A stretch of 64,000 nt of DNA from Enterococcus phage nattely (MT119360.1); one strand, 5' to 3'. Shown: positions 30,623 through 45,527, numbered from the stretch's first letter. Numbers and translations: made by a program. Notes: a model not told the origin generated them from the letters alone.

Positions 30623-31138
30623 ATGAATTTAGTTATTGAGGGTCCTAAAGCAAGTGGAAAAAGCACAATTTCTCACCACTTTATTGAAAAATATTTAACG
30701 ACATATGACCATATGAGCTCCGATAGCGATAACTCATTAAAAGGACATTTAAATTTATTAAAAGGCAAAAAAGGTGAATCATTAAATCATGTAATAGATC
30801 GTTTTTCAGTTGGGGAAATGATTTATCCTAATTTATATGGCCGTGAAGGAAAATTAAATTTAGATGAGTTTAATGTCACAATGAGTTCAGAAAACACATT
30901 ATACGTTATTCTTTATTCTTCGTCTGATCAATTATTATTTGATCGAATTGAATGGAGAGGAAGAAACACTGATGATGAAGATCATGATTTAGTGTCAAAA
31001 TCAAATTTTGCATTTAAAATGATTGGTGAATCATTGAAATATCGTGAAAATGTATTATTATTTGATGTTGCAAAAGTAGGATTAAAAGAAATTATTAAAA
31101 TAATTGAAGATAAATTGGAGGAGTTAAACAGATGTTAA
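30623..31138 (+). CDS. Thymidylate-kinase-like dNMP kinase (candidate hm-dCMP/dTMP kinase)
   Basis: P-loop VIEGPKASGKST. DRF motif (VIDRFSVGEMIYPNLYG) corresponds to the TMPK DRY/DRF motif. RBS GGAGG. 7-nt overlap with the next gene. Confidence 0.5.
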   Translation: MNLVIEGPKASGKSTISHHFIEKYLTTYDHMSSDSDNSLKGHLNLLKGKKGESLNHVIDRFSVGEMIYPNLYGREGKLNLDEFNVTMSSENTLYVILYSSSDQLLFDRIEWRGRNTDDEDHDLVSKSNFAFKMIGESLKYRENVLLFDVAKVGLKEIIKIIEDKLEELNRC

Positions 31139-31977
31139 AATTTAAAAATGTAAATGATGCATGGATTCATTTGGCAAAAAATGTCGTTTATAAAGGTGAT
31201 GTTGTTGGAAATACAAAAGAATTAACAAATGTATCATTCCAAATTGAAAATCCATTAGATAACATTGTAAAAAGCCGTCACAATTTTTCATTAACATATT
31301 ATTTAGGTGAAACTGTATGGTATGGTGCTGGTAAAGACGATGTTGAATTTATTAGTAAATTTGGCCGTATTTGGAATCATTTAACAGATAATGGAATTTA
31401 TAACAATAGTGCTTATGGTTATATCTTAAAAAATAAGCATGGTTTTGACCAAATCGAAAAAGCAATTGAATTATTACGTGGAGATCAATATAGCCGACGA
31501 GCAGTGTTAAATATTAATATTCCACGGCGTGATGTTATTGAAACAAAAGATGAAATGTGCACAATTGCATTACAGTTTTTAATTCGCGATGGAAAATTAA
31601 ATATGACTGGAATTATGCGTTCAAATGATTTATGGACTGGTACTCCATATGATATTTTTTATTTCACAACATTACAACGATATGTTGCATATAAATTAAA
31701 TATTGATATGGGAACATATACGCATTTTGCAACTTCTTTACATTGTTATTTACGTGATGAAGAAAAATTAATTAAATCTTTTGAAAATGATGCAAATAAT
31801 ATTTATGCTGGTATCGATATTAATGGAATGCGTTTATTATTACAAGCTGAAGAATTATATTATACAACACGTAAAGAAGAAAATGCAAAATTAGAATTAG
31901 TTAAATTATGTAAAGAACGTAATATTATTAAAGGAAAAGAAGTTGAAAAAACTATTGAAAAACTATCTGCTATTTAG
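31132..31977 (+). CDS. Deoxycytidylate 5-hydroxymethyltransferase (ThyA family; T4 gp42-like)
   Basis: ThyA-fold motifs SRRAVL, DEMCTIALQFLIRDGKLN and IMRSNDLWTGTPYDIF. MCT, LIRD and MRSND match T4 dCMP hydroxymethylase rather than ThyA. Asp in GTPYD replaces the ThyA Asn of the PFNI motif that dictates uracil specificity. Confidence 0.65.
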   Translation: MLKFKNVNDAWIHLAKNVVYKGDVVGNTKELTNVSFQIENPLDNIVKSRHNFSLTYYLGETVWYGAGKDDVEFISKFGRIWNHLTDNGIYNNSAYGYILKNKHGFDQIEKAIELLRGDQYSRRAVLNINIPRRDVIETKDEMCTIALQFLIRDGKLNMTGIMRSNDLWTGTPYDIFYFTTLQRYVAYKLNIDMGTYTHFATSLHCYLRDEEKLIKSFENDANNIYAGIDINGMRLLLQAEELYYTTRKEENAKLELVKLCKERNIIKGKEVEKTIEKLSAI

Positions 31978-32005: not shown

Positions 32006-32422
32006 ATGAAAATTAAAATTAATATGTTTAGTGATGAAGAAATTTATCAACCAAAAAGAGCACATTATAATGACGCAGGAGCCGATGTTCGCTCAACAGA
32101 AGAAATGTTAATTTGGCCAGGAGAAACTCGAAAAATTCCACTAGGTTTTGGATTAGAATTACCAGATGGATATATGGGAGTTATGATGAGTCGTTCAGGA
32201 TTAGCTTCAAAAGGATTAGTTTCACAAAATGCACCGGTTGATTCTGGATATAAAGGTCAAGTTCACGCAATTATGACAAATGTATCAGATGAAGTTATTA
32301 AAATTGAAAAATATGATAGAATCGCACAATTAGTAATTATTCCAGTTATGGTTGCAGATTTTGTCACAGAAACAGGTAGTGAAAGAACCAGTGATGGTTT
32401 TGGAAGTACAGGTTTAAAATAG
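32006..32422 (+). CDS. dut: Trimeric dUTPase-family dNTP pyrophosphatase (dUTPase and/or dCTPase)
   Basis: All five dUTPase motifs are present: AGADV, SRSGLA, PVDSGYKGQV, RIAQL and RTSDGFGSTG. Confidence 0.8.
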   Translation: MKIKINMFSDEEIYQPKRAHYNDAGADVRSTEEMLIWPGETRKIPLGFGLELPDGYMGVMMSRSGLASKGLVSQNAPVDSGYKGQVHAIMTNVSDEVIKIEKYDRIAQLVIIPVMVADFVTETGSERTSDGFGSTGLK

Positions 32423-32431
32423 GAGGATTAT

Positions 32432-33490
32432 ATGGAAATTTTATTATTGAATGTCGCAAATAACATTACGGATTTTCGAACAGTATCAAGTGGGGAAACA
32501 GTTTATCTAAAACAAATGTTAGAACAGTTAGGCCATGGAGTTACAATTGCTTCAAATAAGAATGGTGAATATGCGGTTGCATTTGAGGAAATTGAGGATA
32601 TTAACAATTTTGACAAAGTAGTTGTTTTACCTGCTTCACTGAACTTTTTCGGTGGTGTAGAAAACCCGACAATTATTAAAAATTATAAATTATTAGCAAA
32701 ATATAATGGAACTATTAATATTTTGCAAACTGACGCACGTTTGCCATTTAAGCAGTTGTGGCCAGCAATTGAGAAGCGGGGATGGGGATATAAAAAAGAA
32801 GAAGTTTGGATTAATGCCCCAATTAAAGTAATTGCACAATCAAAAAATTTAGATGAAGTTAAAACACAATATGAAAAAGAAATTTTCAATAACATTGAGT
32901 TTACACATTTTCCAATTGAGCGTTATGCTGGCATTGTGGCGCTAATGAATCCAATTGATGAAGTCGAAGAAAAAGAACATGATTTAGTTTATTATGGTTC
33001 ATTCCGTGGAGGCAATCGTGCTGCTAAAATGGCAGAATTTTTATGTGGAAACATTGTAGAAAAATTAGATGTCCACGTATTTGGAACAATTCGAGAAAAA
33101 CAATTAGCTAAAAGTAGCGATGGTCCATTTCCTTCGTTTGGTAAAAAGATGAAAATGAATGAAATTAGACAAGAGGTTAGCAAAAGTTTCTCAACTTTAA
33201 TTATTGGTGAAAAATTTTATAATAATGCAATGTTGACAGTGAGGGTTTGGGAAACATTAAGTAGCGACGCAGTAGTTCTCATTGACAACGATTTTGACTC
33301 TTACCATAATTTATTTCCTAATTCGCCATGGCGGTATGTTGAAAAAGAAGAAGATCTTATCGAAGTAGTAAAATCTCTTAAAGATGATGAAAATAAGAGA
33401 AAATTAGCGATTCAAGAGCAAAAAGAAGTGTTAGAAAAAATGATTGATTCTTCTCAATGGTTAAGAGATTTTGAAAATATTTTAGCTTAA
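32432..33490 (+). CDS. bgt: DNA beta-glucosyltransferase (T4 BGT homologue)
   Basis: Collinear similarity over about 350 aa to T4 beta-glucosyltransferase as recalled: MEILLLNVANNITDFRTVSSGETVYL, NFFGG, DARLPFKQLWP, APIKVIAQSKNLD, EFTHFPIERY, YYGSFRGGNRAAKMAEFL, VFGTIREKQL, LIIGEKFYNNAMLTVRVWETLSSDAVVLIDNDFD. Same length (352 vs 351 aa). Confidence 0.7.
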   Translation: MEILLLNVANNITDFRTVSSGETVYLKQMLEQLGHGVTIASNKNGEYAVAFEEIEDINNFDKVVVLPASLNFFGGVENPTIIKNYKLLAKYNGTINILQTDARLPFKQLWPAIEKRGWGYKKEEVWINAPIKVIAQSKNLDEVKTQYEKEIFNNIEFTHFPIERYAGIVALMNPIDEVEEKEHDLVYYGSFRGGNRAAKMAEFLCGNIVEKLDVHVFGTIREKQLAKSSDGPFPSFGKKMKMNEIRQEVSKSFSTLIIGEKFYNNAMLTVRVWETLSSDAVVLIDNDFDSYHNLFPNSPWRYVEKEEDLIEVVKSLKDDENKRKLAIQEQKEVLEKMIDSSQWLRDFENILA

Positions 33491-43688: not shown

Positions 43689-43910
43689 ATGACATTTGAT
43701 GAAGCATTTGCAACAGTTTCTAAAAATCGTAATGTATATATGGCATTACCAACGTGGAAAGATGATGTAAAAATTTTCTGTCAATTTCCAGATGAAAAAA
43801 GCAAAATGACACATAAATATTTATATGTGGATTCGCGTTTTGGTCGCGTACCATGGTTACCGACCCAAGTTGAATTATTTAGTGATAAATGGAAGGTGGC
43901 AGCAATCTAA
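43689..43910 (+). CDS. Hypothetical small protein
   Basis: Promoter at 43630-43665. RBS AGAGAGTGA. Confidence 0.5.
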   Translation: MTFDEAFATVSKNRNVYMALPTWKDDVKIFCQFPDEKSKMTHKYLYVDSRFGRVPWLPTQVELFSDKWKVAAI

Positions 43911-44611
43911 TGGAAAGAAAATTTGAAAAAGTAAGTGGATATGAAGATGTAAATATCCCATTAAGAGCGACTCGTTTTTCGGCCGGTTACGATTTTGAAG
44001 CGGCGGAAGATATTACAATTCCTTCGTTGGTGATTGGAATTGACCAATACACAGAAAATATCAAACGAAAAATTGATGCAACAGATGATGTATCTATCAC
44101 TGAAGATCAATTTGAAAAACTTAATAATATTAATAGTGAATTTGAAGATAATTCAATTTACACTCAAGCTGATGAAAAAAATTATTTGGACGTATTAACA
44201 ATTATGAATGATATTTTAGATGAAGATGTGGATGCTGATACTGTTTTAGACCATTTGAATCAATTTAAAAATACATTCAAACCAACTTTAGTTCCAACTG
44301 GTATTAAAGCAAAAATGCCAAGTGATGAAATGTTATTATTATATAATCGTTCTTCAAATCCATTAAAACGTTTCTTGTTTTTAGCAAATGGTGTTGGAGT
44401 TATTGACAGTGATTATTATAATAATGAAGGAAATGAAGGTCACATTATGTTCCAATTTATTAATTTAGGTCCCACACCGATCACTATTAAAAAAGGTGAA
44501 CGAATTGGCCAAGGAATTTTCCAAAAGTTCTTATTAACGACAGATGTTGAAATTACACAAGACGTTGAACGAACTGGTGGTTTTGGTTCGACTAATAAGG
44601 AGGAACAATAA
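43910..44611 (+). CDS. Second dUTPase-family protein carrying a roughly 100-aa acidic insertion (dCTP/dUTP pyrophosphatase or deaminase-like)
   Basis: Motifs ATRFSAGYDF, ANGVGVIDSDYYNNEGNEGHI, GERIGQG and RTGGFGST, with a long D/E-rich insert between motifs II and III. TAATG overlap with the upstream gene. Confidence 0.6.
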   Translation: MERKFEKVSGYEDVNIPLRATRFSAGYDFEAAEDITIPSLVIGIDQYTENIKRKIDATDDVSITEDQFEKLNNINSEFEDNSIYTQADEKNYLDVLTIMNDILDEDVDADTVLDHLNQFKNTFKPTLVPTGIKAKMPSDEMLLLYNRSSNPLKRFLFLANGVGVIDSDYYNNEGNEGHIMFQFINLGPTPITIKKGERIGQGIFQKFLLTTDVEITQDVERTGGFGSTNKEEQ

Positions 44612-44904
44612 TGGAACGTAAAGTTATTCATGTGTTTTATGACAAAAATCATACAACAGACTTAGCTGTCTTGAATGTTATTGAAGAAATTGAAAGCAAA
44701 TTTGATTCAAAATTAAATTTAATTATTCAACCATTAGAAGTTGAGCAAGATATTGTTATGACAAATGCATATGGTATTCCTTTATCTTTTGAAGGTGTTT
44801 ATATTATTGTATTAGATAAAGATAATAATCAAGAGCAATGTATTCATGCAAAAACAAAAATTCAAGCTTTATCTAAATTGAAAGGAACGAGCGTTTATAA
44901 ATGA
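44611..44904 (+). CDS. Hypothetical protein
   Basis: ORF with TAATG overlap. Confidence 0.45.
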   Translation: MERKVIHVFYDKNHTTDLAVLNVIEEIESKFDSKLNLIIQPLEVEQDIVMTNAYGIPLSFEGVYIIVLDKDNNQEQCIHAKTKIQALSKLKGTSVYK

Positions 44905-45527
44905 AATTGACTAAGCCAATATTTGTTCTTGCTGGAAAAACACTTTCTGGTAAGACAACATTATTAAATTATTTAATTGATGAATGCCATATGAATAATC
45001 ATAAAAAAGTAGAAAAAGTTGTAACAATCACGACACGCCCCAAACGCCCGGGCGAAATGGATGGCAAAGATTATTACTTTATTACTAATGATCAATTTGA
45101 TAAAATGGTAAAAGAAAATAAGATTATTGCTCCACGGGAATACCATGTTGCGACAGGAGAAGTGTGGAAATATGGAATTGAAAAAGGTTTTGAAAATGAA
45201 TATGAAATTCCAGTTGTTGTAACAGATGTTCAAGGAATTAAAGATTTGAAAAAAGAATTTGGAGCACATAATGTAATTGTATTTTATAAAGAAATTTCAA
45301 CTATTTTACAATTAAAAAGAGCGATGAGTCGCAAAGAAAATAGTCGTGACGAACAAATTCGTCGCATTATCTCAGATGATGAAGATTTTAAACATATTTG
45401 GGAATGGGCAGATTATATTCTAGATGATGAAGAAAGTAATATGCCTGATGATGCTGGTTTTATGTTAAATCAAGTGGATTATGAAATTGACCAATTCAAT
45501 GATCCTGACCGTGACATTTATATCTAA
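44901..45527 (+). CDS. gmk: Guanylate-kinase-like nucleoside monophosphate kinase
   Basis: P-loop VLAGKTLSGKTT and TTRPKRPGEMDGKDYYFIT, matching the GMP-kinase signature. Confidence 0.6.
   Translation: MKLTKPIFVLAGKTLSGKTTLLNYLIDECHMNNHKKVEKVVTITTRPKRPGEMDGKDYYFITNDQFDKMVKENKIIAPREYHVATGEVWKYGIEKGFENEYEIPVVVTDVQGIKDLKKEFGAHNVIVFYKEISTILQLKRAMSRKENSRDEQIRRIISDDEDFKHIWEWADYILDDEESNMPDDAGFMLNQVDYEIDQFNDPDRDIYI

Follow-up and report, generated by a model that had tools for sequence, protein, structure and literature searches.

The trimeric dUTPases (Duts) of staphylococcal phages are highly similar to one another except in motif VI (residues 95-127 of Dut80alpha), a segment between motifs III and IV. 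This motif differs from phage to phage and determines partner specificity; catalysis does not require it, but binding of Stl, the repressor of staphylococcal pathogenicity islands (SaPIs), does (PMC4914113). Satellite pressure selects dut variants in these phages (PMC4619825). A further reference is provided by the Firmicutes trimeric dUTPases of the YncF/YosS type, which include the enzymes of Streptococcus mutans (3H6X) and Bacillus subtilis (YncF, 4AOZ; YosS, 2XX6). Here we analysed a 64,000-nucleotide stretch of DNA from Enterococcus phage nattely (MT119360.1), hereafter the window, with a focus on a gene at positions 43910-44611 of the plus strand that encodes a 233-amino-acid dUTPase. 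This protein has the same five motifs and the same fold as the YncF/YosS type, including the extended motif III GVIDxDYYNNxxNEGHI, and it resembles the staphylococcal phage enzymes (80alpha and phi11, the anti-repressors of SaPIbov1 Stl) in combining a conserved core with a single hypervariable insertion. A second, compact dUTPase of 138 amino acids is encoded elsewhere in the window as a member of a hydroxymethylcytosine (hmC) cassette. Both dut genes and their annotation as dUTPase, which the GenBank records of related phages already carry, are known.

The gene at 43910-44611 is a complete open reading frame (ORF) of 233 codons plus stop. The ATG start codon and the stop of the preceding gene overlap in TAATG, with a Shine-Dalgarno-like stretch, GGAAGGTGG, ahead of them; the start site is the same in homologues. 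The ORF is present in all Andrewesvirinae Enterococcus phages (VPE25, VFW and vipetofem), and the nucleotide identity of the region is 97% with Enterococcus phage vB_EfaS_140 and 87-88% with VPE25, VFW, vipetofem and vB_EfKM29 (Andrewesvirinae). Because the ORF is kept in two phage genera and its core shows a ratio of non-synonymous to synonymous substitution rates (dN/dS) of 0.08-0.28, it represents more than a chance reading frame. An earlier sequence-only reading of this DNA, which had called the gene at these positions, was therefore correct in treating it as real.

The catalytic core is made up of two blocks. The N-terminal block (residues 1-39; 43910-44026, plus strand) aligns to residues 5-40 of 3H6X, with query residues 3-37 matched, and contains motif I (S24-AGYDF-29, 43979-43996). 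The C-terminal block (residues 125-233; 44282-44608, plus strand), of which residues 126-229 align to residues 46-147 of 3H6X, contains motif II (N146-RSSNPLK, 44345-44368), motif III (G161-VGVIDSDYY, 44390-44446), motif IV (E197-RIGQGIF, 44498-44521) and motif V (R221-TGGFGST, 44570-44593), all on the plus strand. The catalytic set is present (D28, R147/S148, D166/Y169, R198/Q201 and R221-TGGFGST), and residues R147, S148, D166, D168, Q201, R221, G224, G226 and S227 are invariant across 72 homologues. All five motifs are intact, as had been expected from the sequence.

Family searches place the protein among the dUTPases. It matches the Pfam dUTPase family PF00692 (E=1.8e-14, 54.1 bits against a cut-off of 22), with the match covering only residues 123-228 (profile positions 29-128), as well as the dUTPase family PHROG 135 (5.5e-38). 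The best-scoring curated model is the YncF-type dUTP diphosphatase NF010561 of NCBIfam with 140.4 bits; this score falls below the equivalog cut-off of 223 bits because the insert splits the match into two stretches. The best solved relative is 3H6X (E=7e-31), on which the modelled core superimposes with a Foldseek E-value of 1.6e-13 and a TM-score of 0.94 normalised to the target. Furthermore, the core shares 67-75% of its residues with the dUTPases encoded on Vagococcus and Enterococcus chromosomes. Profiles of the dCTP deaminase family perform far less well, with 20.3 bits on the dCTP_deam model TIGR02274 (cut-off 92.8) and a weak, below-cut-off match to Pfam DCD (E=1.7e-4). The region of the uracil pocket around motif III (N160, GVGVIDSDYYNN..NEGHI) is the same as in the solved S. 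mutans enzyme. We consider it quite likely that the protein is an active dUTPase bearing a non-catalytic accessory domain. It would belong to the homotrimer-type dUTPases of the Firmicutes YncF/PRK13956 kind and be competent for catalysis, with predicted enzymatic activity, dUTP specificity and trimer formation.

The two core blocks are separated by an acidic insert of about 85 residues (residues 40-124; 44027-44281, plus strand), which follows motif I, precedes the strand K124-PTLVPTG and motif II, and replaces the short hairpin formed by residues 40-46 of 3H6X. The sequence-only reading had described an insertion of 100 amino acids between motifs II and III. The Pfam, 3H6X and homologue alignments instead locate it between motifs I and II, and the alignment to 3H6X shortens it to about 85 residues. 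Its D/E-rich character was recognised correctly: the insert contains 21 D/E and 7 K/R, giving a net charge of -14, which lies about 2.6 standard deviations below the mean of all 85-residue segments of ORFs in the window. Across the insert types described below, the net charge ranges from -7 to -14.

A full-length AlphaFold2 model built from the 72-sequence alignment reached a mean pLDDT of 89 and a pTM of 0.82. In this model the insert is a confidently predicted four-helix domain (H40-60, H65-79, H89-102 and H112-122), with pLDDT values of about 81-95 for the helical blocks. No solved dUTPase covers the insert, and the TM-score normalised to the query is accordingly about 0.5. A fold search of the insert-only model against the PDB returned no significant neighbour, the best hit being an anti-CRISPR protein (E=1.6, probability 0.21). 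Likewise, when 1.84 billion representative proteins were searched with a profile built from nine insert sequences, only its own dUTPase cluster was retrieved, and searches of the insert in Pfam (at a lax threshold), NCBIfam and PADLOC gave no meaningful match. The insert is an orphan domain with no detectable relative outside its own dUTPase cluster.

Comparison between phages shows that the insert is a hypervariable, exchangeable cassette, under purifying selection within one insert type. Relative to VPE25, the N-terminal core is 87% identical at the amino acid level, the insert 19% and the C-terminal core 89%; nucleotide identity drops to 45-57% over 44002-44284, with about 85-100% in most of the flanks. 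Relative to the metagenomic phage contig L013, which encodes the homologous protein P0004, the flanks are 97-100% identical and the stretch 44025-44290 only 28-63%, with sharp identity boundaries near 44025 and 44290. By the Nei-Gojobori method, this pair shows a dS of 0.075 and a dN of 0 in the C-terminal core, compared with a dS of 0.77 and a dN of 0.81 in the insert. Since the dS of the insert is far above that of its flanks, the insert must have a different and much older ancestry, which in turn points to recombination, beyond mere fast local evolution. The identity matrices of core and insert are also discordant: the cores of proteins P0001 and P0004 are 99% identical and their inserts 23%, and the insert of P0004 is nearest to those of P0006 (52%) and P0005 (48%). 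The insert types are mutually 17-30% identical. Within one type (window versus P0002, 76% insert identity), the dN/dS is 0.17 for the insert and 0.09-0.14 for the core, indicating that the insert is a constrained, functional domain.

Throughout the Lactobacillales-type dUTPase subfamily, the loop that joins motifs I and II is a hot spot for insertions. Measured from the GYD of motif I to the TG of the following strand, the distance in the 120 best homologues is as short as 28 and as long as 137 residues, with bacterial chromosomal forms clustering at 50. The shortest homologues (152 amino acids) have about 8 residues at the insertion site, the chromosomal dUTPases of Vagococcus and Enterococcus (167-174 amino acids, many entries) a segment of about 28 residues, and homologues of 207-265 amino acids 55-115 extra residues. 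Phage forms fill the site with 80-115 residues. These inserts are nested in the alignment, with the short bacterial insert matching helices 1 and 4 of the phage insert.

Every long-insert protein with an inspected contig is phage-borne. The phages in question share a module of PolIII-alpha, TK, RecJ and gyrase, usually together with a guanylate-kinase-like gene, and carry a RusA- or RuvC-type resolvase gene beside dut; the isolated Enterococcus phage H1 (138 kb) encodes a 265-amino-acid version in the same neighbourhood. In three long-insert contigs (L010, L011 and L012), neither a thymidylate synthase (TS)-like gene nor a beta-glucosyltransferase gene nor a homologue of the 138-amino-acid dut was found in the roughly 20 kb of each that were examined. 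Phages of the H1 group are missing from the records that match the TS-like protein of the window at E<=1e-10, and judging from these organism counts the group appears to be without the TS-like gene. On the basis of the core identity, the curated models and the occurrence of long inserts in phages where no hmC genes were seen, the insert-bearing enzyme looks like the resident dUTPase of its lineage.

Taken as a whole, the explanation we favour on balance is that of an active resident dUTPase equipped with a swappable, conflict-linked interaction module. The enzyme would serve as the resident dUTPase of a broad Lactobacillales phage lineage with the PolIII-alpha, TK, RecJ and gyrase replication module, and its 85-residue acidic four-helix domain would be nested in a surface beta-hairpin between motifs I and II, as an enlarged form of the two-helix insert of about 28 residues found at the same site in the chromosomal enzymes of Vagococcus and Enterococcus. 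Positioned outside the catalytic machinery, the domain may constitute a modular surface element, several deeply diverged types of which would have been moved by recombination between near-identical phages while each stayed under purifying selection. Its most likely role would be a protein-protein interaction caught in phage-host or phage-satellite conflict, in which the insert is either recognised by a host or satellite factor or itself binds a variable factor, making it functionally convergent with staphylococcal motif VI. The insert is presumably dispensable for catalysis, and any binding partner is likewise presumed. The chance that the insert mediates a conflict-related protein interaction is, in our estimate, close to even but not above it. 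A narrower form of this proposal is rather doubtful, namely that the dUTPase scaffold presents three copies of the helical insert as a swappable module for conflict, which is either sensed by an enterococcal defence system or phage satellite or employed as an inhibitor or decoy against a variable host factor. If it were true, Lactobacillales phages would have independently reinvented a moonlighting Dut with a specificity domain, at another loop and with a new orphan fold, and the insertion hot spot of the subfamily would be a general platform for such modules.

Several points weigh against the favoured explanation. The activity and the oligomeric state of the protein are inferred. With a z of about -2.6, the insert is no more than moderately acidic, which may be nothing but a consequence of a helical domain being exposed to solvent. 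When the insert was modelled alone, its four helices were kept at a mediocre pLDDT of 69.5, and together with the lack of fold relatives this makes the nature of any interaction a guess. The saturated dS values reflect old, diverged insert types and recombination and do not demonstrate positive selection. In addition, this phage group looks lytic, so that the repressor of a phage-inducible chromosomal island (PICI) or of a prophage is not an obviously expected target. Finally, the absence of the hmC cassette from the three long-insert contigs rests on the roughly 20 kb examined per contig.

The presence of two dUTPase-superfamily genes in one phage raises the question of how their work is divided, and the sequence-only reading had connected the pair to the exclusion of cytosine and its hydroxymethylation. 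The compact paralogue is indeed a dUTPase-family member (32006-32422, plus strand; Pfam dUTPase 9.5e-23, 80.8 bits against a cut-off of 22), with the dUTPase of feline immunodeficiency virus (FIV) as its best PDB match. Its gene lies between those of a TS-family pyrimidine hydroxymethylase (31132-31977, plus strand) and a T4-like beta-glucosyltransferase (32432-33490, plus strand; PF09198 2e-61, PHROG 7922 2.2e-98). The TS-like protein finds its best PDB match in the CMP hydroxymethylase MilA (9.3e-26), and its motif GTPYDIF places an Asp at the position of Asn177 in Escherichia coli ThyA. An Asp at this position is the cytosine-type signature known from T4 gp42. The DNA of the relatives VPE25 and VFW contains bisulfite-resistant cytosines, from which glucosyl-hydroxymethylcytosine was inferred (PMC4999554). 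Together, the cytosine-type TS-like gene, the glucosyltransferase and the resistant cytosines of VPE25 support the view that the phage makes modified cytosine.

Among the alternatives, the one that survives best assigns dCTPase or combined dCTPase/dUTPase function, similar to that of T4 gp56, to the 138-amino-acid protein and leaves the 233-amino-acid protein as an ordinary dUTPase. We regard it as a tentative possibility. In this division of labour, the compact enzyme would remove dCTP and thereby provide dCMP for the hydroxymethylase encoded next to it. The genomic context is consistent with such a role, as homologues of the compact protein (55-63% identity) sit immediately downstream of a TS-family gene in three contigs (L006, L018 and L019), as in the window, and about 0.7 kb downstream of one in a fourth (L020), with three small ORFs in between. 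These contigs represent three different phage architectures, and all of their TS-like proteins have the Asp at the ThyA Asn177 position. Moreover, the compact protein is 98.6-100% conserved within the genus, and neither a MazG-like protein nor a dCMP deaminase is annotated in vB_EfKM29, a genome in which many genes are hypothetical.

Nothing in its sequence, however, shows such a role. The compact protein passes the NCBI dUTP-diphosphatase equivalog cut-off (106.6 against 103) and reaches only 42.1 bits on TIGR02274 (cut-off 92.8) and 34.9 bits on NF002598 (cut-off 130). In its clade, the motif III loop (residues 73-82) is two residues shorter than in the Duts of Aquifex and Mycobacterium (NAP-VD/PPID versus NxPGTID), and a Pro occupies the position two residues before the catalytic Asp in nearly all of 120 homologues. 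The shortened loop was considered as a mark of cytosine specificity and rejected: PPID also forms motif III in Dulem virus 37, the closest outgroup (49% identity), whose gene lies beside ThyX and a dCMP deaminase, an ordinary dUMP context. We found no specificity-changing residue in the 138-amino-acid clade that would predict cytosine binding; in the trimeric dUTPase fold, base recognition is carried out by main-chain atoms. At motif III, where the sequence-only reading had proposed to look for residues that tell C from U, the insert-bearing protein resembles the S. mutans dUTPase, and neither paralogue shows a change in base specificity in its sequence. Division of labour with the compact protein is compatible with our favoured explanation, and if it exists within the hmC pathway, the genomic context favours the 138-amino-acid gene as the hmC enzyme. 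Its close association with cytosine-type hydroxymethylases makes the compact dUTPase clade a candidate for the dCTP-clearing enzyme of Gram-positive hmC phages.

Two further alternatives concern the insert itself. In the first, the insert would be a docking element that tethers the dUTPase to a nucleotide-synthesis or replication complex of the phage, comparable to the dNTP synthetase of T4, through partners such as the downstream kinase or the 97-amino-acid protein. Upstream of dut lies a translationally coupled Tad2-like gene of 73 codons (43689-43910, plus strand; PF11195 5.6e-8, TAATG overlap, conserved synteny); Tad2 is Thoeris anti-defence 2. Downstream follow a conserved 97-amino-acid ORF without family match (44611-44904, plus strand) and a conserved partner, a guanylate-kinase (GK)-like dNMP kinase (44901-45527, plus strand; PF00625 1e-19, PHROG 1815 1.2e-40). 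The order of Tad2-like gene, dut, 97-amino-acid ORF, GK-like gene and resolvase gene is kept across genera, and the linkage of dut, GK-like and resolvase genes also occurs in the H1 group. Although this synteny and the variation of the GK C-terminus between phages would suit a docking role, the insert is replaced in L013 while the 97-amino-acid ORF and the GK-like gene retain 90-100% nucleotide identity with the window, and no co-variation of the insert with either was seen in this comparison. A phage-internal partner is not expected to tolerate insert types that are only 17-30% identical, and we consider docking improbable.

In the second, the insert would be an acidic DNA mimic or decoy that, in three copies on the trimer, inhibits a DNA-binding host enzyme, for instance uracil-DNA glycosylase (UDG) or a restriction enzyme of type IV or type I. 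Such a mimic would be one particular form of the conflict proposal. The net charge of -14 and the retention of acidity (-7 to -14) across types despite 17-30% identity would fit a mimic, although the insert is modest beside Ocr- or ArdA-like mimics, which are more acidic. It has no structural similarity to solved proteins, as judged from the fold search above, and UDG is too conserved to explain the hypervariability of the insert. Related enterococcal phages counter type IV restriction with TifA, a small electronegative protein (PMC11322646). With these points combined, we judge a mimic function unlikely.

The proposal that the insert-bearing protein is itself a dCTPase or dCTP deaminase, adapted to this role by its insert, is very improbable: the fact that a phage with modified cytosine has two members of the superfamily and the weak Pfam DCD match are outweighed by the core identity to housekeeping dUTPases, the low TIGR02274 score, the S. 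mutans-like uracil pocket, the long-insert homologues in phage contigs where no hmC cassette was seen, and an insert that varies freely while the hmC genes stay constant.

Other parts of the window and of related genomes show additional local variation. The 3' half of the Tad2-like gene (43720-43824) forms a second local patch of divergence from VPE25, with 60-72% nucleotide identity. In the GK-like gene, the C-terminal part (45305-45484) is 58-78% identical to VPE25 at the nucleotide level, compared with 92-100% around it; L013, by contrast, matches the window at every nucleotide of this stretch (100%), so that it varies independently of the dut insert. The 97-amino-acid ORF is 95-96% identical within the genus and kept in the Andrewesvirinae phages examined, and in contig L008 its slot is occupied by a PF05014 nucleoside 2-deoxyribosyltransferase-like gene. 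Within the hmC cassette, the cytosine-type hydroxymethylase is only about 75% identical at the amino acid level to its counterpart in VPE25, VFW and vipetofem, while the flanking compact dut and beta-glucosyltransferase are about 98.6% identical, which makes the hydroxymethylase another mosaic patch. Downstream of the beta-glucosyltransferase gene, vB_EfKM29 carries a Gtf3-like glycosyltransferase gene ('nucleotide sugar synthetase-like') after RNase H (L001 6584-7546), an equivalent of which is expected near 34.1-35.1 kb of the window. In L006 the Gtf3-like gene is present and no T4-type beta-glucosyltransferase was seen, and this gene hints at different or additional sugar modifications. Finally, the PolIII-alpha gene of two metagenomic phages (L011 3412-9071 and L012 1665-7346) is in three pieces, split by HNH and GIY-YIG homing-endonuclease genes, and in vB_EfKM29 a GIY-YIG gene lies just upstream of an intact polymerase gene.

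Our literature searches on dUTPase insertions or dCTPases in VPE25-type phages, and on dUTPase-triggered defence outside staphylococci, returned nothing specific. We found no description of the insertion hot spot, of the cassette-like hypervariability or of the association between cytosine-type hydroxymethylases and the compact clade; the first two, together with the orphan character of the domain, are new. VPE25-type phages serve as models for enterococcal phage therapy and for studies of phage resistance, and a housekeeping enzyme with a recombining, hypervariable surface domain marks a place where conflict of the phage with its host or with satellites is likely.

The relation of the insert-bearing dUTPase to described systems can be summarised in terms of site, size and fold. 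Where the YncF/YosS enzymes have a hairpin turn of about 7 residues to connect motifs I and II, it carries the 85-residue four-helix domain. Vagococcus and Enterococcus encode chromosomal dUTPases (167-174 amino acids) that belong to the same subfamily and use the same insertion site, with a short insert that is nearly invariant among many Vagococcus fluvialis entries. The long-insert dUTPases of other Lactobacillales phages, namely the H1/EF1 group (265 amino acids) and Lactobacillus phages 521B (213 amino acids) and 3-521 (282 amino acids), share the core, and the H1 group and the metagenomic homologues also share the insertion site; all are annotated simply as dUTPase. The inserts of H1/EF1, 521B and 3-521 are not detectably homologous in sequence, and the structural overlap is partial, the two Lactobacillus phage models in BFVD overlapping our model somewhat beyond the core (TMq 0.58-0.63).

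The dCTPase-dUTPase gp56 of T4, which clears dCTP and supplies dCMP in an hmC phage, is a possible functional analogue of one of the two paralogues. It belongs to the all-alpha dimeric dUTPase/MazG-like superfamily. Both paralogues described here instead have the beta-rich trimeric fold and match only the beta-type dUTPase/DCD families; neither shows the gp56-type all-alpha fold.

The closest parallel remains that with the staphylococcal phage Duts, which the sequence-only reading had raised as a moonlighting alternative. Staphylococcal motif VI comprises about 30 residues between motifs III and IV, whereas the insert described here is about three times larger, all-helical and located in another loop, between motifs I and II. 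The core also belongs to another dUTPase subfamily, and it is the 138-amino-acid paralogue that is closer to the Duts of 80alpha and phi11. The moonlighting idea is best matched by the hypervariability and cassette exchange of the insert; its site and its different, larger domain do not correspond to motif VI. Because loop, size, fold and subfamily all differ, the enzyme is better viewed as a convergent variant of the staphylococcal moonlighting Duts than as a member of that group. If the proposed role is true, the moonlighting principle would reach beyond staphylococci, having arisen convergently at another loop.

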